A DNA stretch of 61,326 bases, counting the filler, from Hausera hauseri (lineage: Eukaryota): assembly GCA_046269625.1 (NCBI GenBank). It is 11 parts of 11 records of this genome, joined end to end, with 100 filler letters (N's around TTAATTAATTAA, not from the genome) between each part and the next. Parts side by side here need not be neighbours in the genome. Positions count along the whole stretch, not along the records: positions 39,260 to 43,405 come from JBJURY010735877.1; 10 more parts are not named here. One strand, written 5' to 3'. The stretch's first letter is position 1; each line of letters starts with the position of its first letter. The translations under genes and the position numbers were made by a program. A model generated the notes under the pieces. It made no database searches. It was not told the DNA's origin and saw nothing but the letters and a program-made list of their open reading frames with translations. Positions 3,301 through 53,700 of this stretch are shown here, piece by piece.

Positions 3301-3972
3301 CTATCAACTTTCATGACCGGAAAATGTGAAAACAGCCAAGCCGTCTCTTGTTCTTCTCGTTCTTTTACCACTCGGATATATCTTTATTTCGTATATGCTT
3401 CTATTACCTTTTCATAGGTCGCTTTTGCCTCCTCATCTTTATCTAACTTATTCTTCAGAGTTTTCAATCGTTTTTCTGCCATCCATTTATTGTTTTCCAT
3501 TTCAGATTGTATTCCTCCCTTCCATTGTAACGGCAAGCAGTATCTATTTTCTTGATGAGTCGTTTCTTTTAATATCCGTTTTATTGCCTCCTCATCTTGT
3601 TTATTCCTCTCAAACTCGTTTGCGCCCATGTTAAACTCGACCTCCCATAAGCGGCTCAGATCATTTTGAATTTCCTCTGTCCTTGTCCAAAAAGTCCTTA
3701 TGAAATTACTATTTATGTTTTTCCTTTTCTTTTTTATTTGTCTTCCACAGGTCCAGCCTAACGGAGTTAATCGCGTCACCGGCGAACCGCTTTTGCTATA
3801 TACCTCTTTGATTGACTTGTGTAACTCTGTAAAGTTCGCCACAACAATACCATTCACCTCTAAGTTGTGTGACAATGTGGGAAACCTTAAGTGCTTTAGA
3901 TGGGACTATTTTGTTTTTCTGTGGACCAGTTCACTGCCTTCATCTTTCCGGTTGGATTTTTCATAGCTATCG

Positions 3973-9085: not shown

Positions 9086-9131
9086 AACCGGTATAAATTC
9101 CGCTGAGCCCAGTAAGGTGCCCAGATATATT

Positions 9132-9655
<524 letters not shown>

Positions 9656-9794
9656 CATACAAGGACCTCGGCTACTCCGAAATTTCCGACCCGTCGCGGC
9701 GAGGCTGAAGCTCCGGCCGCCGACCCTACGCCATTGGGTCAGGTGGCACCGCTTGTAGACGCCCCACGACACGCGCCTGGCTACACGACCTCTC

Positions 9795-10006
9795 CATATT
9801 TCCTCTTCTTTTCTTTAAATAACAAACACATTTGCATAAATGCATTAACACACTTAAACACTGCGGCTATCTACAACATCTCCACTTTTCTTCGCTCATC
9901 TGACTTTTACCTCACACAACACGGCTCAACGGTACCTCTCGTTGGGAATCTGCGACCTTCTTCAACTTATATCCACCTCCACATATACTTCCGCATCCGT
10001 GGTGGC
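9795..10006 (+). other. Ubiquitin-like domain in frame with Gag (ends FRIRGG|M)
   Basis: FLFFSLNNKHICINA..TAAIYNISTFLRSSDFYLTQHG..LHIYFRIRGG, about 70 aa, aligns by eye to the ubiquitin pattern (IFVKTL-GKTITLEV..helix..RLIFAG..LHLVLRLRGG). Continuous with Gag in ORF 9533-10597. Confidence 0.75.
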
Positions 10007-11079
10007 ATGAATTTATCGACTACCATAAACACCACGGATAAAACCAGCACGAAACCAAAATCTGTCATACTGCTTCAAAAACCCTCTCCTGCTTTCACCA
10101 ATCATACTGCACCTACTACCTCTTCCGTTCCTTTCCCTAATTGCACCGAATTATTCATTGACAACCAAGGTTCCAGCAAAACTCGGTTGCAATTCCATCA
10201 ACTGTGTCTACAGGCAAACAATTTCACCGACCCCTTAACCAAGGAACACAATCTTCTCTTCTTACTCCCTAACAATATCAAAACACGCATTCACAACATC
10301 CTTGAAATATTTGAACTTCCTGATCCATACCCACAGCTCTCCAACGCTGTTCTTAAAATCATAGAACCCTCAATGGACACCATCATACAACGCTTCTTCT
10401 ACGACAATTCCATAGGAACACAATTATTATCAGAAATTTTACGCACGTCATTGGCACATCTGCACACTCTCGGCGTCCTAAAAGACACAATCCCGAACTA
10501 CTGCGTCATTACCCTCTTAACGCCTTACCCATCCAAATTCGGGCCCTACTTACTGAGGTGGAGGACTCCACGACCCTTGAAAAATTGGCCGAATTAGCCG
10601 CTAAAACACACGATATTCTGCAATTAAATTCCCCACCAGTCGTTTCGGCGGCAGTTGCCCCTAACGATATTCAATACAATAACATATTAATAGAACAACA
10701 ACTCAGTCAGCTACGTGCTGAAAATATTGCACTACACGCAACAATTAACAAAATGAACAACAAATTAAACAAGCTTTCCCTGTCCCGGCGAAAAGATTTT
10801 GGTGTTGACAGCGCCCATTCTGCATGTAGAAACCGGTCACCATCGCCTGTGCGGTCGCCAATCTAGTATTATTACAGCAGATTCAATAAGAATTCCAAGA
10901 AATGCTGCCTAGGGTTCAAATTTTACAACAAAAGTTTTTTCACACATCGTTGCTTGCATTTACCACAAAAAATCTGAAAATCAAGCCCGTAAGTGCATTT
11001 CAGGCTGCACTTTCAAAACAGATACAAACAATGGACGTATTACTTTTTCTTCTAATAGTCGTTCTAGTTCGCCTTTTCG

Positions 11080-11128
11080 AAAAAACTAAATTTGCCGCCA
11101 GAAGTCACCGCAAACTCTGGCAAAGGCA
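11080..11128 (+). promoter_or_regulatory. -1 ribosomal frameshift signal (gag-pol), copy A
   Basis: A AAA AAC then gag TAA; after a 6-nt spacer, stem TGCC-GCCAGA / TCTGGC-(AAA)-GGCA. Pol is in the -1 frame. Confidence 0.85.
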
Positions 11129-21100: not shown

Positions 21101-21729
21101 ACGTATCCTGATGGACCCTTTTCTCCGGTGTCTCCATCTTCACCTCTTTGTCCTTTACTTCCTAGTAAACCTGGCAGGCCATCTTTTCCCGGATCTCCAG
21201 CTTCACCATCACAACCTGGGTCTCCTTTTACCCCTTTCACTCCTCTAATTCCGGGAAATCCCTGACAACAAAATAAAATTAACATAAACATATGAATGAA
21301 TTACTGGAAATCCATTGGTACCTGGATAACCTGGTTCACCTTCTGCTCCCTTAAATATTATTATTGAGTAATACTTATACATTCATATTTTACTTGTTCG
21401 CCTTTTGGACCCTGCATTCCCATAATTCCACTTGGTCCTTTAACTCCTTTTGGACCTGGTCTGCCTTTGAGACCTTGTGGTCCTTTGACGCCAGGTAATC
21501 CGGTTGGTCCTGGTGGCCCTGGCATTCCCTGGGGTCCTTTTGGTCCGATACAGTTACATTTATCCGGTGTGCATATTTTCTTACAATCCGGTATTACAAT
21601 ATCATCATATCCAAATACATTGGACACCAGCATCAACGTACATTGAAATGCTAATAATCTGAATGAATTATTCGTTATATCGATTATCAATTTCGAGATA
21701 TTTTATACTTACAATTGCAAATTTTTCAT
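15133..21729 (-). CDS. COL4A: Type IV collagen alpha chain (multi-exon, apparently complete)
   Basis: Spliced N-terminus [22 protein letters not shown] (signal peptide; intron 21712-21659), Cys-rich 7S region [12 protein letters not shown], long interrupted Gly-X-Y domain, C-terminal NC1 with two HSQ..CP..L(Y/W).G(Y/F)S..GSCM..SRC.VC repeats. Introns are canonical GT-AG, e.g. 15475-15436, 15837-15787, 16337-16294, 16651-16608, 17345-17301, 17699-17654, 18061-18015, plus one intron of about 460 nt near 20085-20547. Confidence 0.97.
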
Positions 21730-24300: not shown

Positions 24301-24759
24301 TCGAATTCAAGGAACGGCTCCTCAGTTTGTAGATACTAATATCCTCTTACCACAAAGACAGATCAGTTCACACGGTGCCCATTTCAATTTAACAGCATTT
24401 GCTTCCAGTTAAAATTGTTCAGCGCAATAATTCTATATCAAAATCACATCGTCAATGCTTGGTCATGATGAAAATACTGTCATGGTGCTCAGCAAAACCA
24501 CAGTCAAACACAGGTTGGTGAAGTTCTTTTTACTAGTTTGCGCACACCGGTGCGGCCATCTTTTGCGCATTTACAAATCCTTCATAGCTCGCACCATTTT
24601 TCATTTTAAAGGTTTTTAAGCTCAAAATCTTTGGATATTCCTTTATCCCAATGATCACTTGCCACTGCTACCCCGACTGCACGCTCATACTTCTTGTTAA
24701 CACAGAAGGAAACTGCCAAAGTTCCCCATGCATTTCACCATTCTCATGGGATTACTTCG

Positions 24760-24989
24760 CTGCAACTCTCCCTCCTTGTTTTTAGCAATAATCAACACAT
24801 TACAACCGTTAAAGCTTCACTCAACGCCACAGGGCAGCTACTATACACATCTTTATCATCCTCACTCAACATGTCTAACTTTTATTTCACACATCGAGGT
24901 ATCGGTGTACATCCTGTCGACTCTTGTCTTTCGTATGGCACGAACGTCCAGTCACCTATCTTATACTCCATTTTCGCCTCCGGGGTGGA
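24760..24989 (+). other. Ubiquitin-like domain upstream of Gag, copy B (ends FRLRGG|S; one frameshift)
   Basis: LSLLVFSNNQHITTVKA..TGQLLYTSLSSSLNMSNFYFTHRG.. then, after a frameshift near 24945, TYLILHFRLRGG. Confidence 0.75.
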
Positions 24990-26003
24990 TCGGATCCCAA
25001 TAAATCCTTCTTGGATGACAAATCCACGAATACAGGCAACATCTATCGTTTGCCACAATCCCAACTGTCACGAGGTTCGTTAAATTTATCTTGTGTGGAA
25101 ATTTTCCTCGACAAAAACAACTCCAGCAAACCATGGTTCCAATTCCAACAACAGTGGCTAAAATCAAACAATATCACTGATTGTTTTGTGCGAGCCAATA
25201 GTCTTAATTCTTCTGCCTGCCAACATCAAGCAGCAGATTAGTAACATCTCCGAGCTGCTCCAATCCTCGACACCTTACGAGACACTCTGTGAAGCTGTAC
25301 TGCATGTAACGGTTCCTTCGATTGACAATATAATACAAAAGTATTTTAACGACCACGCGATAGGAAACCAAACGGCCATTCTACAGCTTAGCGTTCTAGG
25401 AGTGACACCTACTAATGACGCGGATTTAATTCGCCATTATTTCATATCATCTTTGCCCACCTCAATCACAGACTAGCTCACCGTTGTCGACAAGTCCACT
25501 GCTATCGAAAAACTGGCAATAATGGCTGACAAATTCTTTGAGGTTCTTCATACCAACAGTTTTCTTCCTATTGCGGCTGCAACCACATGCGTTCCAACTA
25601 CAGGCACAAAATTTTTTACTCAGCAATTGCGAATGATGCAGCAACAGTTTGACAAGTTACATCAGTCAGTTTCGGCCATTACTACCCAACTAAGTAATCT
25701 TAATTGGCTTCAACGAAGTGAAACCAAACCTTCAAGGGAGATAAGCATTTTCAGACACTCTACTCGATCCATTTTACCTGGCGGACGCATGACTTGCTTC
25801 TATCACACGCGATTTCGAAGGGATGGTAGGAAATGCTTTATGGGCTGTCGGTTCTACAGCGAACGGTACGCTGTGGATAACCCTCTTTGCGTCTATCACA
25901 ATAAGTTCCGGTCACAGGCTAGATCATGTGTGCCTGGTTGTAAACATTACAACGATAAATCTTCTCGTTTTTCTTCCGCTTCTTTCTTTTCTCCAAATCC
26001 TTC

Positions 26004-26075
26004 AAAAAATTAATAATGCCGCCAGATTTTACGGTATATTCTGGCGAAGGCAATATCCCTCAATCATCTGGCCGT
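26004..26075 (+). promoter_or_regulatory. -1 frameshift signal with predicted pseudoknot, copy B
   Basis: A AAA AAT TAA; stem GCCAGA(26021-26)/TCTGGC(26040-45); loop ACGGT can pair with GCCGT (26071-75). Confidence 0.85.
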
Positions 26076-29000
26076 TTCAACACAGCCTCTGCAGCTTTTC
26101 TGTTGAAAGATGCACTGTTATTCAGAGATGCTTCACATATCGACTTCCTTATAGACTTGGGAGCTGCCTTTTCGCTCCTTCCATTACCCTTCACTCCTAC
26201 ATCCACTATAATTTCCTGTCCACCTCTTTTCACTGCCACTGGTCAACCGTTGCACGTTGCATGAACCACGGAATTGACTTTCACATTCGCCAACTTGCCA
26301 GATAAGTTTGTCTGGAAGTTCCACGTGGCCAATATTAAATCGCCCATAATAGGCTCAGATTTTCTTGCCGCACATGACCTATTGGTCGATTGCAAATTCG
26401 GCTGTCTTTTAAGCAGGAACTCGATTGCAACTCCAAACATGTGTCTCGTAGACAATCTAGCTAGCAATTCATTGCATTCATCTGTGAACATGCTGAACGC
26501 TTCGTCATTTATAAAAAAACTTCCGAAAAAGTCGGTAATATTTCAATTATGAACGACAATCATAAATCTATTCTAAAACAAAAATCCAAATTAAACGCCG
26601 ACAGTATCGTTGCCAGTTGCTTTTCCTCAATTACTGGAGCTGTTCTTTCTAATAATATGCCTCAGTCATTCTTATCTGTGGACTCCGATCTTAAATAGTA
26701 CATCACAACGTCATGCTTTCGCCTAGTTAAAAGAGACATCAACTTCAAGCTCTCATCCTCAATTTATCATCAAATAGTAACAGAGCATCAGAGACATATC
26801 AAACAAAAGGTCATACCCTTGTCGCCACGTAGACGTAAAGCTGTGAAACAGGAATTTAATGAATTAGAAAGTTCTGGCATCATTCGGAGATCAAATTCAC
26901 CGCGTGCTTCTCCTCTTCATGTAGTGGTAAATAAAGGTGGTACCTATAGGCCATGTGGCGGCTATCGACAATTAAACAACCTAACTATTACAGATGCCTA
27001 TCCACTACCACCCATTAAGGATATTCATCATGGCCTCAATAATACCAATACCTATTCTACCATTGATCTGCACAAGGCCTACCATCAAATTCCTGTTGCA
27101 CTTGATGACATTCCAAAAATTGCTGTCATCACACCATTTAGCCTTTACGAATATATCTTCATGCCTTTCGGCCTACGTAGTGCATCTCAAACCTTTCAGC
27201 GCCATATTGATACCGTTCTTTCTGGTCTTGATTTTGTTTATCCATGCATAGATGACATATTAGTTGCTTCCAGCTCCATCAAACAACATCATGAGCACCA
27301 TAGAATTATTTTTCATAGATTGCACTAAAGAAACATGCAAATTAATTTCGCCAAATGCAATTTCTTCCAGAAACGCATCAACTTCCTAGGCCACATAATT
27401 ACTCCCGAAGGTCATTCGCCTTAGCCTGATCGCTTACAACAATTGAAAAATGTGAAATTACCAATTACCACTACCGATATGAGGGATTTTCTCGGGACAC
27501 TTCAATTCGTATACAAATATGTGCCACACTGCTCCGAACTAACTGCATCTTTCGCAGACCTCTCATCCGGGAAGAAAAGGCAACTAATCCATTGGATTCC
27601 CGATCTAGTTAACCAATTTGATCGCCTTCGTGATTGTCTGAAATCCGTTAAAATCCTGGTTTTCTAAAACCGAACGCGCAACTAATATTAACCACCGATG
27701 CCTCAACCACAGCCACTGGTGCGATATTACACCAAATACACAATGGTGTGGATGAATCGTTAGAATTTTATTCTCGAACGCTTACGCAAACAGAAAGCCG
27801 ATACTCAACATTCGATCGCGAACTCCTGGCCATAGTTCTGGCGGTAAAGCATTTTAAGCATTTGCTCCTATCACGTCAATTCGTCATCCAAACCGACCAT
27901 AAACTTCTACTTTATATCATGACATTAAAACAGCCATCATCCAGGCAAGCACGTCAGATATCATATCTGTCGACACTTAGTTTTTTTATAAAATATATTT
28001 CTGGCACCGAAAACTTAGTAGCAGATTTTCTGTTGCGATCGGTCAACTTAATTACATTTCAGTCAGTTTTCTCCTCTGAAGTCCTGAGAAGTAATCAGTT
28101 ATCATCTGATATTCTCCCAGCGTTTCAATCAGTTGCGAGCATTGATGACATCGCCTACGACACATCCAACTCGACTAATGAGAAAATCATTTTTGCTCCA
28201 TAGCTACAAAAGACAGCTTTCAATCACTTTCACTCTCTTCATCATAGGGTTCAAAAGCCAGATTTCGTCTACTGCAACTCCACGTTGTATGACCAACTAT
28301 GCGTACAGATGTACAGATCTGGGTTAATGGATGTGCAGCATGCCAGCAAAACAAGGTCCACAAACACCTCAAACCACCACTTTACCACTTCCCTTGCACA
28401 TGTCGTTTTGACACTGTTCATTTGGGTCTTGTCGGTGCTTTACCATCCGATAACGGCTATCAATATATCTTATCTATGTTGGATCGCGCTTCTCGCTGGC
28501 CGGAAGCCGTTCCTCTTCGATCAACGAATACCGACTCAGTTGCAAGTGCATTTACCAAGATATGGGTCAGCCGTTTTGGCTCACCACGTCACATCAAAAC
28601 GGACCAGGATCCGCAATTTGAAGCTGATCTTTTCAAATCTCTCGTAAAGCACTTTGGGATAGCCCATTTCCATACTACGCCTTACCATCTCCAAGAAAAT
28701 AGTCTTCTTTAGAGATTTCATCGCAGCATGAAGATTTCCTTAAAAATCCTGGAAAACAACAATCATAACTATACCTCAATTCTTCCCCTTGTCCTACTCG
28801 GTTGGCGCAACACTCCATCCACTACCACCGGCTATGTCCCAGCTGAAGCTCTCTTTGGGACACCAATTCATGCCCTATTTGAGCTCTCCAATCTCGATGA
28901 CAGCCGGTTGCATGAAGTTATTCGTGCGGCACAGTCACACTTTGTAGACGTCAACTCAAACGCATTTTTCCGCCTCACAAATAATGACAAATTTTATATT

Positions 29001-31519
29001 CCAGAGGACTTATACTCAGACAAGTTTGTATGGTTGAAGGATCCGTCACCTTCTGGTTTTCGGCCTCAAGACGTTGGTCCTTACAAACTACTCAACTTTC
29101 TTCGCACACCGCTACTATTTTACGCAAGGACAAACCTCAAAATGTATATATCTGTAACACCAGAATTCTTCGTTGGAGATGACCAGGATAACAGTCTTAT
29201 TTTGAATCCTAATTCTAACCTCTCCCTTCGAGCAATCTTCTAATTTCCTTGATGATTTTAATCCTTTGCAGCAATCACTTTCGCTCCACAATCAGCTCTC
29301 TTCACTTGCGTCACCATCCACTGCTCCGTTACCATTTACGTCGCCGTCGTCGCCTAAACATCTACTACTCATTTCATCTTTATCGGACGATTCGCTTCCA
29401 TCTTCTGTCACGCCTTCCTCGCGTGTTCCTTTTCCTTTTTCAGGCTCTTCTCCACTTTCACTTCTTCATGAAGCATTCTCCCAAAACAACACAAAATCTA
29501 CAGTACATCTCTTAGACAACTCCACAAGCACCAGTAGCATCTAACAGGTCACGCCGAGTGACATATAGTACTTATACCAGGGAGAAATTCATAGATGGAA
29601 CTCAATGTCTAACAGGTNNNNNNNNNNNNNNNNNNNNNNNNNNNNNNNNNNNNNNNNNNNNTTAATTAATTAANNNNNNNNNNNNNNNNNNNNNNNNNNN
29701 NNNNNNNNNNNNNNNNNACACTTATTAACATCACTTTTTCTAATTATCAAATGCAACTTTATTAAAATTTTGGTTGAAAAATATAATTTATCAAAATGAA
29801 AATTTTGTCAAAGTTTAAAATTTCTAAACGTACTGGGCGAGAGTTGAACAATTGCCAAACAATATCACATTGAAAACTTCCAATTGTGTTAATTTGATTT
29901 CATTGGCAATTTTATTTTCATATGTTTAATCTGCGTTATATTATGCACCTCTCTAACTGTGTTATTAAAAACCACATGTGCCTGAAAGAAATGTTTGCTT
30001 CTTAGTTCACATGACAATATAGTTGAACATGGACGAACTAAAGACATTCCCCGTGCACATTAATTCTTATCCCAATATTCAAGGCCAATTCAACGGTGAT
30101 GTCGCAAATGAACAAGTGCTTGAAAAGTTAATTTTTGAATATTTTTTGTAGGTTGCTTTGCTTCATTAGTAACTACTTTTCCATAATCGGCTTGCAATTT
30201 CTTCACTTGTGTAAGTGATATAAAAGTTTTGACACATTATTGAACGGTAAATTCATATTGAACTTATTCTAAAACGAGTTACCTCGTAACCGGGCAACAA
30301 AGTGCTAATATGCACCATAGTATTGAGAGAAATCATCACAAACCTATGAATCTTTTACGCAGAATATACGGAACTTCTTCATTATACGCACACTCAAAGA
30401 AAACAATAGGCAATGAAAATTTCATTCTGTCTTTGCTAATGTGCAGTCGAAATAAACATTTTCCTTTCAAATTCGCTCAATTGTATGCGAATGGTCGATC
30501 AAGTGCAAAAGGAGTTTCGTAAATTAGCGACCAATTATTGAAACATAAAAATACCGAATCCGTCTTCAATTGTTGACATGATTTACTCATTTACAAATTA
30601 CCAATTAAATCGAACCAAGGGTTTATGGAGTAAGAATAAATCCAATTAAAAATAATAATTATCAATTCTCTTCACAAATTTTACTATTTCCGTCGATTTC
30701 CTTCAGTTGCAATATAAGATTACTCAAGTCGATTCAAATCGATTCAAATCCGAATGATTAAGGTAATTTAATCCAATGAGAGCTTTCGATTCAGCAATAC
30801 AACTTTCATATCTTGACTCATCCTGATAATCCAATAGCCAATCGACATTGACAACGATATTGCTTTCCATACAAAAAATATAACCGGGAATTTTTCTCTT
30901 TTCTTCACCTTGAAACCATCTGGAATGTCCACGCCTAGTATATCGTTCCAAAACTGTTTCCCGGATAAATGAGTGGAATAACACGGAACATAAGTTTCGT
31001 TACCCATAATTACGAATTTCTCCCTGTAGGGTTTGAATTTCTTCTCCAACTCGCTCTGAGTCAAATCAGACTTGAATAATATAAACAGATTATCCGCATT
31101 TGTAGAGAGTTCTAACCTGCTCCCGAAACAGGTTATAATTCTTAGAGTTTCTACAAAAAATGGTCAAGAAGGATTTTAAAGAATTATGAGAATGATTAAA
31201 TTGCCAGTTTTTTCTAACCAGAACATTACTTCAGAAAAATCCAGTCTGCGCAGAAATTGAATAAAAAAATTGAATAAATTTTTTGATTAAAAATAGCAGA
31301 ACGCAGCTGAAAAATTTTTATTGCTTTTAACAAAAACAAAAAAAAATTTTTCCTCAGCAATTGTATCGTTGGGATGACGTTTGATCGGCTAAATCCCGAC
31401 TCCATAGTGGTCCCATTCTTGGTGATTGGTTCACTTGGGCGATGGCCAGCGCTTCGTGAAATCTGCTGTTTCTCCTTGGCTACTACTGTTTTTGTACGAT
31501 TGTCTGTGGCATATTGACT

Positions 31520-34500
31520 GTGAATTGAGTTGACGTCGCATTATTGTTGCAAGCGCAATACCCTAACCTGTTGAAACGCGCAACACAACCAACACAGAAA
31601 GAGGTTAAAACATCACACTTTCTCGTCACATCATGTGACCAACCGATTCGGCAACCCCGGAAGGAGCTTGACCCTGTTAAGAGAGCAGCTGCGTAAGCCG
31701 AATTCCGACACCTCCAAGAAACAGGCATCATACGCCGCTCCATATCACCGTCGGCATCACCATTGCACATGGTTCCAAAAAAGGACGGATCATACCGGCC
31801 TTGTGGTGACTATAGAATGCTAAATAACGTCACCACCCATGATTCATGCTCAACACCCTTGGTACCAGATATATTGCATCGTCTACATGGTGCAGCAATA
31901 TTTAACACAATCGATCTGTTAAGGGCATACCACCAGATCCAAGTGGCTACCGAAGACATTCCAAAAACGGCCGTAATAACGCTTTTTGGTTTGTTCGAGT
32001 ATCTACGTATGACTTTCGGCTTACGGAATGCAAGTCAAACATTCCAACGCCACATAGACCAAGTCCTCATCGACATGCCTTACGCAATCCCATATATAGA
32101 CGATATATGGATTGTATCACCCGATGAAGCGACTCACAAAACACATCTCGAACATGTGTTTCATAGGTTGAATGAAACCAACTTACAGTTGAACATAAAC
32201 AAATGTTCATTTTTCAAAACTGAAGCCGTATTTCTCGGACTTCGATTAACCCAACATGGTCACAGTCCACTTCCTGAGCGACTAAAAACAATCAAACAAA
32301 TACCTAAGCCATCCACAATGGCTGCACTTCGAAGTTTCCTTGGCACCATAAACTTCTGCCATCGCTACATTCTGCATTGTTCGAAAATCCTATCACCTCT
32401 ATCTACTGTAAGCCAAGGACCCAAAAAAATCCCAGGTAAATTGGACAGATGACGCTAAACAGGCATTTGCCAATGCAAAAATGGCGCTTCTACACCTACC
32501 TACACTACACTATCCTAAACGAGATGCACCGTTTATCTTAACAACAGATGCATCCACAATCGCTGTAGGTGCCATGCTTGCTTAATCAGTCGATAGCAAA
32601 AATGCTCCCATTGAATTCTTTTCCTACAAATTCAATTCGGCTGAGCAACGCTATTCAACCTTTGACCGAGAATTACTAGCCATAATCTTCAGTGTCAAAC
32701 ACTTCCGACATTTCCTCGAAGAAAATGTATTTACAATTCGTACGGATCACAAACCACTTATTCAAATGATGAGTATAAAGAACCCATCCTCTCGTCAAGA
32801 GCGACACATTTCATTTCTATCAGAATTTTCATTCCAGTTAAAACACATAACTGGAAAAGATAACACAGTTGCTGACTTCTTTTCAAGAACTGGGATATTG
32901 ACAATATCCTTTGACCCTATTTTCACGGAAGAGGTTCTCCGATCATACCCTCCACATGAAGACGACGTTAAGTTCTTCAACACAGTCGACACAAAGGATG
33001 GAATACATTACAATACCATCCTCAATGGTTGTCCACGCCAAATTCTGGCAGCACGCCTAAGGAAACAGGCGTTTGACACCATTCACAACATCCATCACAC
33101 TGGATCGAAAGCCACAGCTCGCTTATTAAGCAGTAGAGTTTGTTGGCCTCGTATGCTAAGCGATATAAAGCGGTGGACAAAAGAATCTTCGCTTTGTCAA
33201 CAATACAAAGTCAACAAGACTATAAAACCCCCAATCTTACACTATCCTACTGGCTCACGGTTTGAAACCATCCACATGGACAGAGTAGGACCACTTCTCG
33301 AATGTAACGGATATCAGTACATCCTAACCATTCTCGACCAAGAAACAAGATGGCCCGAAGCCATTCTAATCCGTCAAATAACAACGCAAAGCGTTGTGGC
33401 TGTATTGCTGAATACAGGGATCTCTCGGTCCGGAGTACCCAAAAACATTATAACAGATCAATATACCCAATTCGAGTCAGCCATGTTTAAGCAATTAACC
33501 AAGTCGCTTGGTTCAAAGCATATTCACACATCGCCCTATCATCCGCAGGCGAATGGTTTGATTGAACGATTTAATCGTACACTCAAATCATTCCTACGAA
33601 TTTTATGCCATGAAAACAAGAATTAGCTGGATGCATTACCCATCATGCTATTAGGATGGAGAAACACTCCGAACACTAGCACTGACACCTCTCTCTCTCA
33701 CAACTATTATTTCGTGCCCACCTTACATTACCATAAGATTTGGTGAGCAATGAGGAAGTAACTTCAATTCCTGCTCTCAACCAAACCCGGAAGCATTTCC
33801 TGTCAATAGACACAAATCCTGCATTCCACAACAATCACAAGAAACCAATCATGCCCAAGAACCTACAAGATGTATCTTTTGTCTGGCAAAAAAACCAACA
33901 AAGACACTGTCTTGAACCGTATTATACGGGCCCCTATAAGCTCATAGAAATCACTAAGCACAACGCCAAAATACTGCGCGACAATGAGGAACATATAGTC
34001 CACTTGTCTAACGTAAAACCAGCATTCAGTTATCATGATTCGGATACCAAATATCCTATAGAACAGAACATACCAAGCATGTCAGACGCAGACAAGCTTC
34101 GACAAAACTATGAAAAAATTGATCCATTTAATATGGACACTACAGTAACCTATAACCCAACCCCGGTCCAAACTGAAACAAATATTGGCCCAACGCCCAT
34201 ACTTCCGGAAACAAAACGTACGACCATACGTAGTCAAACCCCTGCCGCACCGGTATCAAGTCGCACCAGGAGTGCATCAAAGATACCCCGACTTCATTGA
34301 AGTCCTACCGTAACCAAACAGCAAATGCCCGATTGCATGCAGCATGCATGTCGCATCAAAGCAGGTGGGGATAAAGCCCAGTGTCGAATCGACACTCGTT
34401 CATACCACTTTTTATACACCACATACAACCAGGCGACTAACTAGAAGCTCGCTGAAAAGCCAAACAATTCTCCATTTGACACAGTTAGAACCGTTGCCCC

Positions 34501-34830
34501 ACTACGAATTTGCATTGTGCACAACCCTTTTGCAATGCCATTTCGTCGTCAATCGCTTAACACAAAACCCATCGACACGCCCCACCTTGATACCATTCAT
34601 TCACATACCTGGTTGCACGCAGCGTAGATGCTGCACCAAAACAGGTGGGGGTCAAACCCACAGTGCCGAGACCGGCACTCACTCATGCCGTTTTTAATAG
34701 GCAACGAGTACGCTAGATTCAACCATCTCTGAAACCCTAGCGGGTGCAGGAGCACTAAAGGATGTCGGGGAAAGTCGGGAAAAGATGCCGATTCAGCGCG
34801 GGTAAAAGAGGCACAAGGGTCTAACATCGT
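31520..34830 (+). mobile_element. Ty3/Gypsy pol (RT-RH-IN) of a related subfamily, 5'-truncated, with 3' non-coding region
   Basis: HMVPKKDGSYRPCGDYRMLN, DLLRAYHQI, FGLRNASQTFQR, YIDD; TTDAS, YSTFDRELLA; integrase IHMDRVGPL, YHPQANGLIERFNR, GPY motif (YTGPYK). Few stops. Confidence 0.93.
34325..34697 (+). repeat. Two diverged ~90-nt direct repeats (34325-34415, 34605-34697), each with conserved hairpins
   Basis: TTGCATGCAGCATGCATGTCGCATCAAAGCAGGTGGGG..AGTGTCGAATCGACACTC..TTTTT versus TTGCACGCAGCGTAGATGCTGCACCAAAACAGGTGGGG..AGTGCCGAGACCGGCACTC..TTTTT. Confidence 0.8.
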
Positions 34831-35196
34831 TCAATTCAGTTATATAAAAACTTCTAAATGCATCATTTGCAAATGTTGTATAAACATGATACAATTACCA
34901 TTTAAAATTAACAAAGGAAAGAAATTTTGACTAATTCTTAAATTTACAATTGAATAATTAGTAAACCAATATTTTAAAAGTACTACTATCAACAGATTAT
35001 TAGCAGACCACATGAACAATATTACGTAATTTTTGTATTCATTAAACAATACAAATAAACTAACGTGATGGCAGAGCAGCGCCTTTAAGAAATGNNNNNN
35101 NNNNNNNNNNNNNNNNNNNNNNNNNNNNNNNNNNNNNNTTAATTAATTAANNNNNNNNNNNNNNNNNNNNNNNNNNNNNNNNNNNNNNNNNNNNAA

Positions 35197-35499: not shown

Positions 35500-35790
35500 T
35501 TATTTATCACACTTGTTAGTATTCCTTTATCTATCAGTATAATATTGTTTTATAAGCCCTCGAATTTTGTGAAAGTACCAAAAAATTAATATATCTCATT
35601 TGACCCAGGGAATTAAGCAAATCCTGAATATCATAAATAATTGCTCTCGGATCTGCATATTTCTCGGGTAACTTCATGGGTTCTTCTAATATTTTGATAA
35701 ATCTTTCTAAACATTGATTGACGCTATCATAATCGTCCCAAATATGAGAATCGCCGTCTTTAACGAATGTTCGAAATGTCATGAAGTGGT
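35500..35790 (-). pseudogene. ERH: Enhancer of rudimentary homolog, divergent or pseudogenised copy
   Basis: WDDYDSVNQCLERFIKILEE..IIYDIQDLLNSLGQMRYINFLVLSQNSRAY is collinear with ERH (YADYESVNECMEG..YEE..ITYDISQLF.FID.L.DL.CLV....TY). C-terminus disrupted. Confidence 0.8.
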
Positions 35791-36539
35791 CGTTTGTATA
35801 TACTAAACGAAACCGAAACTCAAAACAGAAACCGAAAGTGTTATAATTGTACAGTTGAATTATGAATTGTATGTAAATAATTAAATTCCAAGTCCAAACC
35901 ATCGTATCCAAATGGAAAGTACGAATAAACCGACAAATGAATCAATTAAAAATTCGAAATTTATTATGTAAATCTAAAAATGTAATGTAAATAAACGGAT
36001 CTCGACTGCTATATAAGTCGATGTACAGAGACAGTAGTTGTCACTGTTAATCAGTTAAATACAATTCAGCAAGTATTACTATTAGACAAATTTGTTCAGT
36101 TATTCCAAGATATCAGCAAATTTGACGATTTGTATTCGAGACATTGATTCCGTTGATTTGAACTTCCTTATGTTGCTGATCTGACATTCTTATTATTGGT
36201 ACGGTATAGTTGTTTTTATTTAAATAAATTATTGTATCTTAAAATCTTCTATAGTTTTTCCGTCACTCCTTACGAGGGACTTGTACCACACTAAGTTCTA
36301 AAATCATTTTAAAATCTATAGTTAAGACGAGAGTTTCATAATCTACGCAAGACACCGCACGCAGTACACGCATCATAAAATAGTGCAGACATTCTAACGA
36401 GAACGTAAAACTTATCTGCTTAAGTAATATTATCTCAAATTTGCATTTTACTCATTGTTATAGTTGGGTGTTGGATAGGGCCCACCTTCAACTACTAACA
36501 GTAGCCTTAATAAAACTGTCGCTAATGATCGATAAACAT

Positions 36540-37333: not shown

Positions 37334-38386
37334 TCAGACCTTGACCCTTCTGCCGAAATTTTAACCAAAACCAGGTCTGGTCGTCGTTCTCGCGACCCCA
37401 CACTATCTACATCTCCGAATCTCCCCTGCACAGATTTTCTCCTAGATAAAACGAACTCGAGCCGCACTTGGTTACAGTTTCACTTGCAATGGGTCAAAGC
37501 CAATCACTACAGATTTCTTTCTGCGGGTTAACAGTTTGCTGCTATTACTTCCAGCTAACATTAAGCAGCAAATCAACAATCTTGCTGACATACTTTCTTT
37601 TTCAAGCCCGTATGACATGCTTTACGAATCAGTTCTGCATATCACCGACCCTTCCATTGACAGCATAATTCAAAAATACTTCAATGAGCACGCCATGAAA
37701 AAGAAAAAACAATCGGACTTCCTAAAAACTGCAATCTCTCAATTGAGTTCTTTAGGCGTGACTCCTATAAACAATGCCGATCTCCTTCGTCAGTATTTTC
37801 TTTTATCTTTGCCTACCTCCATCAGGGCGCTGCTGACTGTGGTAGATGACTCTACTGCCCTTAAAAAGCTCGCCATCTTGGCAAACAAAAGCTTTGATAT
37901 TTTGCAATCCAGTAATTCACAGCCAGTAGCTGCAGCAACCGCTCACACACCTTTACACACAGACAACACTTTATTTGCAAAACAACTGCATATGATGCAG
38001 AAGTAATGCGACACACTACAACAGGCAATTTCTGCGATAACAGCTTAACTCAGTGACTTATCCGTACCTCGAGGAAGCGAAAACCGTATTTATCGCAATC
38101 GCAGTTTTTCCAGACATTCTTCTCGGTCCAAGTCTAGAGATGGTAGAATGACGTGTTTTTATCACAGTAAATTCCGCAGAGACGCAAGGAAACGTGTTTT
38201 AGGCTGTCGATTTTATGACGAACGTTATGCAGTAGACAACCCTATCTGCATTTATCACACAAGGTATCAATCCAAGTCTATGTCATGCGTGCCAGGATGT
38301 AAACATTATAAAACGAATCCCAGTTTTTCTCCATCTTTTTCGCCTCCTCGCACTGACCATTCCTCCTCTTTCTACCAAGAAGTCTC

Positions 38387-38458
38387 AAAAAACCAATAAT
38401 GCCACCAGATGCCACGGCACATTCTGGTACAGGCAATATCGTTCAAACTACCGGCCGT
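38387..38458 (+). promoter_or_regulatory. -1 frameshift signal with predicted pseudoknot, copy C
   Basis: A AAA AAC CAA TAA; stem ACCAGA(38404-09)/TCTGGT(38423-28); loop ACGGC pairs with GCCGT (38454-58). Confidence 0.85.
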
Positions 38459-39299
38459 TTCAACACCTACTCTGCAGTCTTTCTGTTGAAAGCTGATCTG
38501 TTATTTGGAAACACATCACACACAGATTTCCTCATTGATTTAGGAGCTGCCTTTTCACTTCTTCCTTTGTCTTTCGCTCCTACATCTAGCACAGTTTTCT
38601 CTCCTCCACTTTTTACTTCCTGTGGTTAACCTTTAAACATTGTAGATACCACAAAACTGACTTTCACATTCTCCAACCTACCAGGGAAATTCTCCTGGAA
38701 ATTTCACATAGCCAACATCAGATCGCCCATGATAGGGTCCGATTTCTTGGCTGCACACGATTTTTTAGTCGACTGCAAGCATAAATGCCTCCTGCGCAGA
38801 AACTTCGTTGCAAATTCTAACAAATGCTCACCAAACGACCCATCGGACACTTTGTTTTCCTCTGATCATTCAAATGTCAATTTGGCATCCTGTTCATCGG
38901 CTGATAACAACTCACTTAACAGTTCATCAATATTTTCAATCTGGTCAAGTGGGAACAAATCAGTCTTGAAACAATCGGCTAAACCAAATGTCATTAATGA
39001 ATTATTCAGTTATTCTACACCAATTACAGCCACTGACTCTTTCAATAATGTGCCTTCATGATTGTTATTGTTGGGTTCTGATCTTAAATCCTACATTAAA
39101 ACTTCTTGTTTCCGTACTCTTAAGAAGGACATCAATTTCAAGCCGCATTCTACAACATANNNNNNNNNNNNNNNNNNNNNNNNNNNNNNNNNNNNNNNNN
39201 NNNTTAATTAATTAANNNNNNNNNNNNNNNNNNNNNNNNNNNNNNNNNNNNNNNNNNNNGGTAGCCCACATGTCGCTCCACATTTGTTTTCCATTTACT

Positions 39300-41135
39300 T
39301 TCTTCGTAAGCCTTTAAGAATTTGCCGAAGGGTGTAATAATAGCCGTTAAAATTTTTCACGAAAATTCTGTCAAGGTGAATATCTCAACCATTTATGATT
39401 GCTTGAATTATAGCTTTTACTAATTGAATTAAGAAGTATATAACTAGAAATCCTGACGCGGCTTGTCTGAATATCAGGAATCGTTCCCATATTTTGTATA
39501 ATATTCCCATGGTTACCTTCTTGTAATAGCCAACACCAAATAATGACTCCCATTTTGCTTGGTAACGCGAGTCCTCTAATATTGTATGCATTGCTCTGTT
39601 TAGTTCATGTGTGCGCTGACGGGGAAAAGCGAGAAATTGTCTAAACGCTTCTACTTCTTTTGATCTATAAATACCCTTCGCGGCTGTATCTTGAAACTTG
39701 TCATCGGTTATTCCTTTTATTAGGTTCGTACCTGTCAGCTTGGTAGGTGGTGTGATAATACCACCGTTCGGTAAACTTACCCAGTCGGTTTCGCTACGTC
39801 TAAACATCGGCTATCCTAAGCTAGTCTTACAGTCTCTCACAATTGTTGGTTGAGTGGCGTTTGCCAACAACACTTTGGTAATTGGTGTTACTAATCTCGG
39901 TACGTCCTGATATATCACTGGGAGTTCTTGTATACACCTCTTCCCTTCCACATTTATCGGTACGTCTTTCTCCTTGCACTCATAGGTTAATAGAACCTCT
40001 GAGGTTACTCGTCCGTAAACACTTTCCTTCATTGGAATTATTGATGATGCCAACTCGGGATTTGCGTATATTAGAGCTAGTTTAGTTATCATGATTTCCA
40101 AACCCAATTTGCAGTCGTTTGTTATCATCTTATGGTACAACTCGGCTATTCCGGCTTGTCCTTTATAGTAGAAACAGTCGTCTCTGTTCTTCAAGTAGTC
40201 TTCGATCCGCATTCCCTGAGTCTTAGAGTTTGAACGCTCTGGCGTTTATTTCTGTCTCGGCTACGAAAATCCGTCATAGTTGGTGGCATACATTACAACG
40301 TCGCATCTCGTGAGTATAGCTTTCTTTACAAATTTTAATCCATGAGTATCAGAAATCAATATAGTGGGTGTATACTGTTCAGCTACATCTTCTCTGGTTT
40401 TAGAGTTACTTTCTGTGCTACTTACATATCGTCTTCCTGTCGTCTCGTTGAATTTATGTTCTTTAATTCTGATAAAGTTGTAATCGGTCTTGGCTGGGGG
40501 TTCCCAAATTACTACGGAACTTTGAAACGGCCTGTGCCATCGTGAATGTGGCACTTGTGGTTCTGGGTGTAAAATTTAGTAACACTATGAAACATCACTT
40601 TCTGAATATGCATTTCGGTTTCGTAAAATTCTACTACCACGACGTTTGGCTCTAATACTTTTCCGGTATAGTATTCTGTACTTCTACAATGTCCCCTGTG
40701 CATATCTAGTCTTTCTGCTGCTACTTTATACATTCTGATTATTTTTTCTTGCTGCATTTCCAGTTCCATACCACCCCATTTTATTCCTTCCATTTCTCTA
40801 GCTTGCTTACAATGCTGACGTTATAAATTCATCGGAATTATTTGGGTTGTTGGCTTGATTATTAACGAGTGCCCATGTATCAATCCACAATGGAAGATTC
40901 TGCGAGATCGCCGCAATATACATTCTACTCCATCCAAGGTAATTAGTTCGCGTTGTTGATATAGCACATAATTTTTCTCCTTCGTTTCTAATTTGTGTGG
41001 CCTCGCGTCTTCGCACATTTCTAAGTCCATTAATGAGTATTTTTGGCCAAATCTAAATTTGTCACAATCATATGCTGTAACTGCGCCCATTTGTCTTATC
41101 AACATCATCATAGTCAACAAGTTGATTAGCCAGTT
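39300..41135 (-). pseudogene. Chuvirus-type (Jingchuvirales / herpes gB-like class III) envelope glycoprotein, endogenous and decayed
   Basis: Hydrophobic leader then AYDC (41075-41064)..YSLMDLEMC..YQQ..EC..FHCG..HS, NVVV, LYHKMITNDCKL..NP..SEVLLTYEC..RCIQELPV..TPITKVL, GIY..FP.QR, and a TM region WERFLIF..SGFLVIYFLIQLVKAIIQAIING. Motif order is that of chuviral G proteins. Several stops and frameshifts. Confidence 0.85.
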
Positions 41136-43405
41136 CGATTCGTTTCCTCTGCGATTTTCGGTTACATTTCGTAGCAGATCTTCGAATCTATTGTTACCGA
41201 AGAAGGATCTATTCTGATGTTCTTCCTTTTTTTCGAATAACTTAGACCAGTTCATTTCTCGAGGTAATTTCCTGGCGGCCCTTCTTGCCAAGCTAGTGGC
41301 CTTGTTGAATTCATTTTCTTGATGTGGTTAGTTTTAACGGCCAGATATAGCAACACTTTTCTCAATTCTTCTATGATATTTTCTACCATAATTCTCTCGA
41401 TTATCATTTTATTGCTTAAGGTACTTCTGAATAATTTATACCGAAGGCCTTTCATAGCCTTTGCGGCACTCGCTACGGCTTTCTCTTTTTCATCTAATAC
41501 ATCACCGCCGAGGTTAGAGTGGTTTACTATTTGTATTAAGTTTTTCATAAGTTTGTTTAGTTCCTTATTATCCGCACTGAATGTCGGTATGGACATTTGT
41601 CTCAACTCTGATTAAATCTCCAGTGTAGTCGATTTCCTCTCGTGTTTTCCGCGGCCTACCGGGAGGACGCTTCTGTTTTGTTACAGCAGGTATACTGCTG
41701 TTAATAGGTACCAAATTTTTATCGTATTGTTCATTATCTTCGTCTGTATGCAGGTACTTGAAATATACTACTGCATCTCGAACTGATATTATTCGCCCTA
41801 CCTGCTGTTCTGCTTTAGCCTTCCTTATCGCCTCTTCCTTTGTTTCATCGATAGTGGTGGTTACCACTAACTGGTTTGTTTGGCCTGGAATAATTCCAAC
41901 CTCTATCAATAATACTCTACTCGTCTAGTATCTTTCCTCTAAAATAAAGTCTATAGCTCAGCTCATGGGCGTATCCATTGTCCTTTATCCACAGTAATAC
42001 ATCTTTTACCAGGGAGCGCGTATTGAATTCTTGTTCTTTTTCGTCCATCCAGTCTGATACTATCTTTACTGGTATTATTTTCTCTGCCTTTGCATTAAGA
42101 TTTTAGCATATTCCTTAAGTAAGAACTTAGGTACCGCACTAGAAATCGTACCTTTGCTCGCTAATTTAGTTAAAGTGGGAACTAGATGACTTAGTTGATT
42201 TTCAGTGAGGTTTACTTCAATTAATTGAGTTAAATCTTTCTCGGGTTGTACCGGGTCCAGAAGCATTCCTACGTTGAACCTTTGGTCTGGAGAGTATATC
42301 TCCATTTCATCCAGTCGTATTCGGGTTTTCGGATTCTCGGAAATCATTGCGTCTAAATAGGCTTCCCAATCTGGTTAATTTTCGTTATCCGGCAGTTGAT
42401 AGCTTTTTGACGGTGTATCAGTTGGCCTGTCCACACTTGCGGTCCATGTAGTTTTTCTGAGTTCTTGTAGTTTCTGTTGCATTTGGACCATTTTCGTCGT
42501 TCGAAAACATCGTCCATTAGTGGACGTTTGGTGGAGCAGTGTTAACAACGAACATAATTCTTCGGGTGGAATTAAACCCTTTTCTTGATATTTCTTTAGT
42601 TCAGACGTGACATCTCTTTGCCATGTTTGAACGAATTGTGACTTGTCAGCTTTTTCTGCTTCTGTAAGGGCGTATTTGTTTTTATAAACTTCGAGTTCTC
42701 TAGCTAGTTCATCTAATCTTATCGCTCTCCGCTTCGTCTTAATGCAAGTTTCTTCGACTTGTTGTATCTGCCGCAACAATTGTCTTAGCCTCTCGTCACT
42801 AATTTCTGCCATCTCTGCCATCAATAGCGCTAATTCATACATGTCGTTAATACTCTTCGAATCAGAATCTACCGCATCTAATACGTTTTTTACAAATTTG
42901 ATCTCTTCGAAACTGAGGTGGTGGTCGTTCTTTATTTTAATTAGTTCAGTATGGAGTCTTTGATCCGTTCCATCCATCCATTCTTGTGGCTGGTGTAAGA
43001 ACTTAACTCCTTCTTCCACGATTGCCCGATGTTCAGGACAAAAGTCCAAGGTTTTAAGATCTCGGATCGAGATTTCTTCGATAGGATTGGCTGTCAAATA
43101 CCGTATTCCTTTCAGGCGGACATCTCTCAATCGCGGGTAAAAGTCGCAGGTTAAATTCCTTTTTCGCATAAAGTTGGTTTCCTCTATCATCTTGTACATA
43201 TCGTCTAGCATCATCATTTCTTATTTCTTTTCCATGAAGTCCAATTGACGTAATGCTTCAATTTGAGTCCGGATGTCAATTTCGGCTTTCATCGTATCTA
43301 GATTTCAGGCGTCTTCTTCTAACCGCTTTTTTACTGTAAGCTCGCTCTCCGGAAATTCGTTCTTCCGGCTACTTATTAATTCGCTCAACCTTGTTATTAC
43401 TTTAG
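41136..43405 (-). pseudogene. Long decayed ORF upstream of and collinear with the glycoprotein: coiled-coil, ubiquitin-like domain, AT-hook
   Basis: Consecutive minus-strand ORF pieces (43217-42375, 42347-42075, 41909-41568, 41605-41252, 41291-40821) linked by single stops or frameshifts. Ubl-like segment at about 42076-41860; KRPPGRPRK at 41672-41646. No RT or integrase motifs. Confidence 0.65.
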
Positions 43406-50916: not shown

Positions 50917-53700
50917 CAGTGGCGTACCAGGAGATTGTGGCGCCCGGGGCCGACTGATTGAATTGCGCTCTCCTCTAAAGAAATCTAGCGATTACCTTTT
51001 TTTAGACGTAACAGAAGAAATTTTTTAATTTGAAGAAACGCGGCTTATTTCGGAAAAATGCTACTTAATCTTTAAAAATAACCAACTTATTAAAACAGCT
51101 GTCACATTTATGGCATTAAGACTTGGATGTATGTATTTAGAGAAAACAACTGACAAGTTAGAGAAACAATACAACATACATAAGCAGTGTGTATCATCAC
51201 ACAACACTGTCTCAGATAAAAAGAAACACGAGAGGGTGGAGAACCCATGATTGTCACTGTGAGGTCATAAATCACAAATGTCGCTTACGATATTTAGCTG
51301 CTGCGAATTGCGCAATAACTGTATGAAAGTCAGTGGTGTCAGCAAGTTCCTTCTCAATGGAGATGATGGCGAGGGCATTCAATCTGGCTTACGACATTGT
51401 TGATCGCAAGTAAGACTTGATCAGCTTCACTTTGCTGAATGCTCTTTTACATGAGGCAACCGACAGAGGGAGGGTTAGAAAAATTTTAAGCGCAGTGTTG
51501 AGGTTACGAATTGCAGGAAGTCTTTTGCAGATAGTCTCGTTTGCATTTTGTCACTGTGAAATGCAATAAGTTCGTGACGGATACGTTTCATCTCTTCCAG
51601 TAGATCCTTACCATTGACGTGGGAGTGATACTTCTTGGCAAAGTTGGAAATTTCTTTTCCCAGGCGGTGTTCATTATATTCTGATAAGGTTATGAGGTCA
51701 TTACAGTTCAAGAAGCCGAAATCAGTTTGAATGGCATAGAGATCTTCAAAGCGGCGATTAATTTCAGCGATCATGTTGTCCAAAACTTCGGATAAATGTA
51801 TAGTCATTTTCTGCTGCGGAGTAATGTGGAAGCCATCATCTCTCGCTAGTTCACTGAGCATAGTCTTCGTTTGCGTCTTCTTTTCTCCATAGTAATGTTG
51901 ACACCATGTTCATCACACAGATTTTCAGCATACTGAACAGATTTTTGAACAACATTTTCTCGCATTTGTAAATGGGTAAGAAGGGCTGTCACCAGCTACC
52001 TGGAGGTTTTTGTTCGCCACATCCACCGTTCGTAGCACAGCATGCCACAGGTGCAAATGGGCAAGAAAAGAGAACTGAGACATCTGATCAATAAGAACTT
52101 CAGCATCAAAACGTGTTTCCGGTGTTTCATCTTGGCTAATAAGGTCTTCGAAGGCGGCAATGATTTCGGGATGTTGAGTAGCATATGAGATTAAGACTGT
52201 GAGCATTGTAGAGAACGTGACGAACTAGCGAATTCAATTGAGAAATATGAGTTCGAACAACCCGATTCTTGCCGGACATATTTGCAGCATTGTCGTAACT
52301 CTGAGCCATGTCATCTTGCAAGGGCAGCTGATCTTCTCTCAATTTGCCAATAATTTCTTCTGCAATTGCTTCTCCCGTCTTCCCGCGACATATAACAAAG
52401 TCGACAAAGCTTTCCAAGACTTTCTCAATTCCATCTCCAGCAATTTTGACATATCTGATTTGTTGTGCCATCTGCTTAACATGGGAGACGTCGGGAATTG
52501 TGTCAAACATTCTAGAGAAGTACTTAGCCTCTCGAATGTCGGCCAAAATGGTTGCACGAATTTTTCCAGCGATAAGAGAAATAAATTCATTTTGTATGTC
52601 ACAGACTCCTTCTAAGTGATATTAGACAGATGGGTTTTCAGAACACTGTCGTATTTCGAAGAAGCTTAACAGTCTCGCGGAAGTTACCAGCATTTGTCGA
52701 GTCTGCCAAACATTCTGAGTGGCCTCTGAAAGCCTAATTTGTCTTTGCAAAATACAGTACGATATCAAAGATGCGCTTTAATATCTGCGTCCATGTGTTC
52801 CTTTACTCTTCTATTTCTCTCTGCAATGCATTATCCAAGGTTCCCTCATGTTTTATACCTGCCTGCAGATTTTTCCACAGATGAAAGGCCTTCTTGTGCT
52901 GTATTGAATTTTCGTGTTCGCTAATTCTTGGATTTTGTTTTCTCCATGTTGAAAATCCCTCCTTGCTGTTAAATGCAAATTTCATTTCCAATGAAAAAAG
53001 AATGCAAGGGAAGCAAAATGCTGCAAATTTCCTAAGTGAATAATACCGCCATGATCTTGGAACCGTAGTCCAATTCTGAAGAACTTTTGTGAACCATACT
53101 ATTGACAATCATCGTCCATTTTCTGATTTCGCAAAGTGAGTATCCCTATTGCAAAATGTTTGTAGGCCGCGACGAACTAATTCACATCGAATATTGTCCG
53201 GAATGGGTAGGGGCCATTCTCCTACGTCGTCAAGCATTTCAAGACATTGGTTCACCTCATTGGCATCTGCGTGCTGCGCCTGTTCTAAATGATATGTTGG
53301 CTGCAGAATATGTTTGGAAATTGTGTTAAGGCCATCATCTGTGGTTGCTGGTGCTGTCTCTGTCAAGCTCTCAACCATCCTTCCTCCCGTGTCGATGGCC
53401 TCATTCCCATTAACAATCATTATCTTCTCACCGCCACGTTCCACTTGTTGCTCTTCTATCAGTGCATCCTCTTCCTTCTGAAGTCTGCTGACACAGTGGG
53501 CAGTGACGCAGATGGTTTATGGAGTCACGCATCAAGTAGCCTGGGTGCCTTTGCGTTTTCATTAGCCTCTTCCCGTCTCCTTTTCCTGACTTTAGTGCCA
53601 CTTTCTTTCCGTTGCAATGATTGCATTGGCAGCTTCATAATGATTAACCTTCAACCAGAGAATTATATAGGACAAACAACTTTGAAGAGATCTAACAATA
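50917..53700 (-). mobile_element. hAT (Tip100/ZMYM1-type) DNA transposon; decayed transposase at 53626-51272
   Basis: Terminal CAGTGGCGTA at 50917; TTF-type zinc finger (AFCFPCILF..GFSTW), AKYFSRMFDTIPDVSH..IRYV, QSYDNAANMSG, AHSLNL, and dimerisation domain TLPLSVASCKRAFSKVKLIKSYLRSTM..RLNALAIISIE. The second TIR was not found. Confidence 0.92.

Follow-up and report, generated by a model that had tools for sequence, protein, structure and literature searches.

In the window, the 61,326-nucleotide stretch of DNA analysed here, the minus strand of one contig of 4,146 bp (39260-43405) carries a pseudogenised fusion glycoprotein gene. The gene is real (41132-39385), it follows an accessory cassette, both parts are broken, and the family to which they belong has many diverged copies. 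With a probability of roughly 0.85, the contig is a decayed copy of a many-copy, likely Burro-like, Ty3/gypsy LTR retroelement of a flatworm; its gag likely precedes the contig, and protease-RT-RNase H-integrase likely follows it. Both a chuvirus and a BEL/Pao element are improbable as the carrier.

Contig and glycoprotein gene

The window consisted of 11 unplaced contigs (3.9-7.8 kb each), with N44-TTAATTAATTAA-N44 linkers between them; the 10 linkers (window 1-61326) were identical, with 100 bases each, and the order or neighbourhood of contigs across them is meaningless. The BEL/Pao element at 1-3972 (RT, Peptidase_A17, and an integrase zinc finger by Pfam) was on a separate contig and, therefore, was no physical neighbour of the glycoprotein gene. 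The best tblastx match between the two contigs had an E of 0.55, indicating no link, and the view in the initial annotation that the carrier differed from this BEL element was correct.

Translations read with X at stops matched Pfam PF24664 (Monjiviricetes_fusion) in both halves, above its curated cut-off of 27 bits: 52.7 bits for the N-half (41327-40512; E 2.4e-14, profile 6-176 of 653) and 92.1 bits for the C-half (40572-39295; E 2.8e-26, profile 270-578 of 653). A frame-aware profile of 19 relatives gave 457 bits over 41132-39327, and no more than 26.7 bits on any of the 21 other strands. The gene was thus, as initially annotated, a nearly full-length, mutated glycoprotein of the chuviral family, and a match to a chuviral-glycoprotein profile, the absence of which had been named as counter-evidence, was obtained. 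The order of the motifs also agreed with the previous list (leader 41132, AYDC 41075, FHCG 40895, NVVV 40646, CIQELPV 39936, GIY 39675, and FP 39627), although the LY..C.L and EV..C patterns were unmatched as written and the GIY..FP spacing was loose, with a GIY-to-FP distance of 13 residues. The ectodomain was interrupted by in-frame stops at four places (40823, 40263, 40248, and 39813), the frame changed once near 40525, and a further stop (39387) came just past the membrane helix; this copy can make no envelope itself. The hydrophobic leader previously described inside a longer ORF began at codon 66 of the open frame 41327-40821, and ended in the small residues V-T-A before YDC, a predicted signal-peptidase site at which cleavage would occur. 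The previously reported C-terminal membrane anchor was likewise present (Table 1). The gB likeness of this glycoprotein type rests on the accessible text of PMC13524379. With the C-half, no match was found in PDB (phmmer) or among 2,017 candidates of a word-index protein search. None of 333 candidate stretches of GTDB was a relative.

Table 1. Features of the glycoprotein-bearing contig, in the direction of the gene
Feature	Position	Strand	Evidence or remark
Whole contig	39260..43405	-	probable internal piece of a multi-copy retroelement, both ends cut; bounded by N-linkers
Largely helical region of ~390 codons with heptad-like stretches	42234..43405	-	three stops; in relatives, the Gag-to-cassette spacer is found here
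Helical part of the conserved cassette	42100..42233	-	best of 612 tiles, 12.8 bits, E 0.0023
Predicted ubiquitin-like domain	41862..42099	-	cassette profile; frame changes near 42100 and 41910 interrupt it
AT-hook-type motif KRPPGRPRK	41646..41672	-	sequence
Helical region where some relatives have a Bcl-2-like domain	41135..41611	-	frame change near 41330
Internal hydrophobic leader	41073..41132	-	19-residue hydropathy 1.38; same position in relatives
gB/chuvirus-type (putative class III) fusion glycoprotein ectodomain, pseudogenised	39451..41072	-	PF24664; phmmer best E 6.8e-58, 33% identity
C-terminal transmembrane helix	39394..39450	-	19-residue hydropathy 2.31
Short tail to the contig end	39260..39393	-	pol would start beyond

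No gag, protease, RT, integrase, or LTR was detected on the 4.1-kb contig by Pfam, pol queries, or profile searches, whereas the same pol queries found pol on three other contigs. A contig without pol may represent a non-autonomous derivative, in which the cassette and env were kept between LTRs, pol was lost, and copying was performed by the enzymes of another element. The stop right after the membrane helix fits this reading, as does the summed contig depth, which was far higher over env than upstream, though this measure is no copy number. On the other hand, only 76 codons remained on the contig after the pre-membrane motif, and the first protease motif was 146-389 residues on in 11/11 relatives; pol would therefore lie off the contig, and its absence is expected. 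Since this copy, in addition, has stops throughout, we consider a non-autonomous derivative to be quite improbable.

On other contigs of the window, a type IV collagen gene (15320-21546, minus strand; Pfam C4, E 6e-29), an ordinary host gene, had Gly-X-Y runs split by many gaps of 35-45 bases with GT/AG ends, likely short introns, and a homologue of Enhancer-of-rudimentary was present at 35537-35941 (minus strand; Pfam ER, E 8e-11). Four decayed Ty3/gypsy-type fragments on the plus strand (9500-14021, 24650-29617, 31500-35094, and 37400-39159) had C-rich sense strands, unlike the A-rich glycoprotein family; pol matches were found in three of the four, and two shared a 300-base stretch at 75%. 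A broken DEAD-box helicase (8114-9179, plus strand), possibly a retrocopy or captured gene, was located directly 5' of a gypsy gag-like frame. Broken frames at 51478-53516 (minus strand) with a weak DUF4371 match (E 0.011) are presumably a decayed DNA transposon, which we take to be of the hAT type.

Region upstream of the leader

The leader is internal because a ubiquitin-like cassette and an AT-hook lie upstream of it. In many relatives, a conserved block of ~155 residues was found between Gag and env. A profile of this cassette (11 copies from 10 relatives), aligned with frameshifts allowed to each of the 22 contig strands, gave 49.8 bits on 42233-41862; the other 21 strands gave at most 21.0 bits, and triplet shuffles at most 22.8 bits (0/200). 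The profile detected 12 of 31 relatives, 10 of which were the training set and two (L001 and L002, see below) were held out; cassette-bearing relatives were mostly metagenome proteins. The helical part of the contig copy was also aligned by hhalign (E 0.0022, probability 13). An alignment of eight cassette copies matched ubiquitin, NEDD8, and ISG15 (single-domain E about 0.003), and AlphaFold2 on the cassette alignment of the relatives gave a pLDDT of 90, in which residues 80-159 of a relative had the ubiquitin fold (Foldseek E 1e-4; Z 11.8, rmsd 1.8 over 76 residues). A ubiquitin-like domain is thus predicted upstream of env in the contig, with the fold modelled in a relative and tied to this copy by the profile. 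Since it had no C-terminal Gly-Gly, this domain would be a binding module, not a conjugated tag. The first 75 residues of the cassette of the relative were predicted to form a helical bundle, with one helical-repeat row, importin-13 (Z 10.4). A TFIIS N-terminal domain, considered for this helical part, was backed by no result.

The motif KRPPGRPRK is, we assume, an AT-hook; similar motifs were present before env in 5 of 20 relatives, and also in L002. In the segment between this motif and the leader, a putative Bcl-2-like domain was weakly seen. Directed tests on 41135..41611 (13, 17, and 3 of 500 shuffles) did not exceed the best of 20 other strands, and a first Bcl-2-like profile was at chance level (98/200 shuffles). 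No Bcl-2-like match was obtained with hhalign in the contig copy, and all 12 of its pairwise alignments were under Z 2.5. Atlas returned only low-recognition bacterial matches for 41611-41255, which were dismissed as chance. In some relatives, a Bcl-2-like domain precedes env: Pfam Bcl-2 was found in 3 of 4 aligned pre-leader stretches, at best with E 2.3e-5 and under the cut-off. Their structural model had a low pLDDT (49.5), and the Foldseek rows listed were of the Bcl-2 family with E 0.14 or worse; in a wide structure search with this low-confidence model (best Z 6.3), CED-9 and BHRF1 were level with unrelated helical proteins.

At E 0.01, no Pfam family matched the outermost part of the contig (42234..43405); profiles of Gag and pol, and blastp against the 31 relatives, gave no match either, and its 281-aa upstream frame had no usable match in Atlas. 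A possible second helical repeat (42902-42729) was weak (5.1 bits, E 0.55). In Pfam, no BIR, MATH, or ankyrin match was found upstream of env on the contig, where heptad-like stretches were present.

Homologous proteins and gene order

Scanning 1.84 billion proteins in full by HMMER with the glycoprotein C-half yielded 266 matches at E 0.001, and 13 at 1e-30. The best matches were long proteins (1,582, 2,627, 1,299, and 2,855 aa) with 31-33% identity. Among the best 17 of the 266 matches (E up to 5e-21), 10 had protease or pol after the glycoprotein, two had cassette or accessory parts before it, and five were glycoprotein-only fragments; none of these 17 had RT or integrase before the glycoprotein. 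Complete relatives had the order Gag-CCHC-env-PR-RT-RH-IN in one frame, with pol families of the Ty3/gypsy type by Pfam. A second search, with P0005 as the query, added eight env-before-pol polyproteins. P0005 (HBK71150.1) is a complete env-pol polyprotein filed under a Flavobacteriaceae metagenome bin, and is likely animal DNA in a bacterial bin.

Three loci were recovered from 595 candidate stretches in a metagenome scan. L001 had one frame of 3,426 aa with a cassette, env, three proteases, RT, RH, and IN. L002 had the order Gag-CCHC-cassette-AT-hook-Bcl-2-like-leader-G, as in the contig, with one stop before env, and L003 was gag-env-pol with no cassette. Relatives show the gag-cassette-env-pol order in one frame. 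No LTRs or long direct repeat were found in these three loci. The stop in L002 is a lone TGA (3058-3060) between the Gag-cassette-Bcl-2-like frame and the in-frame leader and env, and may be due to either decay or programmed read-through.

Several relatives had further domains. Two to seven aspartic-protease-like domains, together with C2H2 fingers and ankyrin repeats, occurred among P0154, P0159-P0164, and L001; ankyrin was found in P0154, of 4,844 aa. The cassette was doubled in P0157 and P0160, and long tails followed the integrase in relatives, one with an Ig domain (P0165). A separate frame of 496 aa after the L001 polyprotein (10617-12107, plus strand) matched the RNase_T exonuclease (E 1.4e-5), and the leader region of P0019 may, by eye, hold a similar domain. 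In P0123, the PF24664 glycoprotein was behind immunoglobulin domains, possibly a host-domesticated protein or a mis-called fusion.

The reverse arrangement, in which env follows integrase in a BEL/Pao (Anakin- or Tas-like) or canonical gag-pol-env Ty3/gypsy element, exists in this glycoprotein family. PF24664 followed gypsy RT/integrase in the lower-scoring P0023 (E 2e-17) and P0038 (E 3e-12), and BEL DUF5641 in P0062 (E 1e-10), which is assigned to BEL at large by this domain. The AT-hook-type motif also speaks for this arrangement, as integrases can end in basic GRP motifs, and the sense strand of the contig is A-rich like that of the BEL contig. This last resemblance, raised in the initial annotation, was real (A fractions of 0.378 and 0.380, respectively), but did not serve as a link because the env-before-pol relatives L001 (0.398) and L002 (0.377) were equally A-rich. 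Moreover, the 2.2 kb upstream of the leader had no pol match and contained the cassette instead, and the best match had an E of 7e-58, compared with 1e-10 to 2e-17 for the relatives with this arrangement. Together with the tree test described below, these results largely refuted env after integrase, which we regard as very improbable. Maverick, DIRS, and Troyka elements were also considered as carriers, and were discarded since no gene matching them was present.

Phylogenetic analysis

Trees were based on the glycoprotein C-half: 139 of 163 proteins passed the length filter, and 41 fragments were dropped, leaving 98 rows. In the FastTree of 98 rows, the gene was placed in a 26-member env-before-pol clade (0.975) and, within the tree, in an 18-member cassette subclade (0.988). 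For IQ-TREE, 42 of the 98 rows were used, leaving out three near-twins and 53 free-standing glycoproteins; the env-before-pol side had an SH-aLRT of 99 under both LG+G4 and LG+C20. Inner groups had support of 81-83 only, and their members were partly unlike those of the FastTree cassette subclade.

In the AU test, a clade of the gene, the BEL-associated env (P0062), and two neighbours, a group named after the tree had been seen, was rejected (p 2e-5), while a place beside all 19 other glycoproteins was not rejected (p 0.28). The Anakin/BEL-Pao framing of the initial annotation was not sustained, since this grouping was rejected and the closest relatives were of the Ty3/gypsy type. The nearest relative was only 32-33% identical and the branch was long, so that the tree alone leaves the position of the gene unfixed; the cassette match, which is independent of the tree, does more than the tree to place it.

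Copies and host

One public run (X1) contained the contig (0.39 of words), and no RNA run containing it was listed among the public runs. In X1, 7,495 contigs at ≥80% identity covered all 30 bins of the contig, although this number is no true copy count and X1 may be the source of the assembly. By identity, 340 of these were at ≥99%, 994 at 95-99%, 2,850 at 90-95%, and 3,311 at <90%, i.e., 6,161 of 7,495 were under 95% identical, and 715 of 921 variant places were transitions. Since the X1 contigs extend across the whole contig, the latter belongs to a repeat family. The copy spectrum resembles that of an amplified, ageing transposon family, in which env and the upstream part spread together.

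These copies also bear on an endogenised gene of a chuvirus or another negative-strand RNA virus, or a contaminant virus contig. PF24664 is defined on Monjiviricetes, a named chuvirus glycoprotein (P0051) was among the matches, and the AU test allows a place beside free-standing glycoproteins. Of 10 matches whose identity was checked, P0051 alone was a named chuvirus glycoprotein, with an E of 3e-11, against 7e-58 for the best retroelement. In Pfam, no N or L homology was found upstream, where the cassette is that of retroelement polyproteins; thousands of diverged contigs span env and the upstream part alike; and none of 364 candidate stretches in IMG/VR was a relative of the query. A viral origin was, therefore, largely refuted, and we judge it to be extremely improbable. 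The proposal in the initial annotation of an enveloped LTR element was borne out, whereas its alternative of an endogenised virus was not, the closest relatives being Ty3/gypsy-type polyproteins with env before pol.

A DUF7042/7043 gene on the next contig of the window had 16 relatives at E 1e-10 (best identity, 74%). All 12 organism-named relatives were from flatworms, with 57-65% identity; we take their genera to be trematodes, cestodes, a monogenean, and Macrostomum. The host is, therefore, probably a flatworm, provided that the contigs are from one organism.

Putative function of the intact element

The following steps are modelled on known membrane-protein biogenesis. An intact element would produce one polyprotein, of which Gag and the accessory domains would remain cytosolic. 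The internal leader would thread the glycoprotein into the ER, where signal peptidase would cut after V-T-A, and the C-terminal helix would halt transfer and bring the chain back to the cytosol, in which the aspartic protease of the element would release RT and integrase. The glycoprotein trimer would then let particles fuse with other cells, namely, cell entry. In elements with a Bcl-2-like domain ahead of the leader, the latter would remain attached to this domain as a tail anchor.

A more far-reaching proposal, which we offer tentatively and regard as on balance unlikely, is that the contig belongs to a Burro-like lineage which is deeply divergent and heavily amplified, in a flatworm from neither of the two planarian families in which Burro is reported. 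The helical-ubiquitin-like-AT-hook-Bcl-2-env series would then be an old, fixed module of gag-env-pol elements, in which one hydrophobic helix may serve both as the Bcl-2 tail anchor and as the env signal.

Comparison with known systems

As far as the accessible texts of PMC6431247 and PMC13524379 go, the architecture of this locus is already in print, and the locus itself is ordinary. The ubiquitin-like cassette, the AT-hook, and the Burro layout published in PMC6431247 were overlooked in the initial annotation. An apparent chuvirus fossil is re-filed here as a retroelement envelope, and mistaking such envelopes is a common trap in the glycoprotein-based counting of endogenous viral elements. 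The modest addition is a very divergent family and a cassette (helical, ubiquitin-like, AT-hook, and sometimes Bcl-2-like) in 12 of 31 relatives. Should the host not be a planarian of the families known for Burro, envelope elements carrying apoptosis and ubiquitin cargo would have a wider range. On an AT-hook or cassette in such elements, nothing further was found in a literature sample with few subscription papers, which makes this a weak negative.

Similar to the glycoproteins of Chuviridae/Jingchuvirales, the contig gene had PF24664 and the series of leader, ectodomain, and membrane helix. It differed from them in its position behind a retroelement cassette, its many copies, and the E of only 3e-11 with the named chuvirus match. 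Anakin, described in the available part of PMC7642597 as Pao elements of mosquitoes with a chuvirus-like glycoprotein, has the same glycoprotein family on an LTR element. Unlike this BEL/Pao element, the contig had no pol upstream, its relatives were of the Ty3/gypsy type, and grouping with the BEL env was rejected.

According to the text available from Chary and Hayashi (eLife 2026; PMC13524379), GAG-ENV-POL errantiviruses with an HSV/gB-type ENV occur in Nematoda, Bryozoa, and Platyhelminthes, and the supplement, in the part available, includes Schmidtea elements of up to 215 copies. The contig resembled these errantiviruses in the env type, putative gene order, probable host phylum, and a leader and membrane helix around the ectodomain. 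That survey, as described there, is of intact elements only, whereas the contig copy is decayed and partial; ubiquitin, Bcl-2, AT-hook, and Burro are not mentioned in the main text as available.

The closest described system was Burro/GYPSM1 of planarians, Ty3/gypsy elements in which a single frame encodes Gag-(ubiquitin-like)-(BCL2)-Env-Pol (Jurka 2007 and Grohme 2018, via the accessible text of PMC6431247). The same text describes giant LTR retrotransposons of about 30 kb and high copy number, with ubiquitin/SUMO-like, BCL2, MATH, BIR, ankyrin, and Smc-like coil cargo, and decayed fragments with stops and frameshifts in Dugesia japonica. The available parts of PMC8532177 and PMC13465017 cover the expression of Burro1, its control by PIWI, and its reported occurrence in Dugesiidae and Geoplanidae; PMC13465017 also reports, second-hand, that a Burro1 cargo domain protects planarian stem cells. 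Unlike Burro, the contig had no BIR, MATH, or ankyrin match, and the putative Bcl-2-like domain was weakly seen in this copy; the helical domain before the ubiquitin-like domain and the AT-hook are not named in the account of Burro in PMC6431247, within its accessible text. The likeness was set by the published description rather than by direct sequence comparison with Burro, and the full extent, LTRs, gag, and pol of the element would lie beyond the 4.1-kb contig; by this analogy, the element would work like Burro and membership in Burro is likely, none of its defining features having been contradicted. As in Burro (PMC6431247, in the same text), the env is akin to mononegaviral fusion glycoproteins and is in frame with upstream accessory domains, and the two also share a predicted ubiquitin/SUMO-like domain ahead of env, a high copy number, a (probable) flatworm host, and decayed copies.
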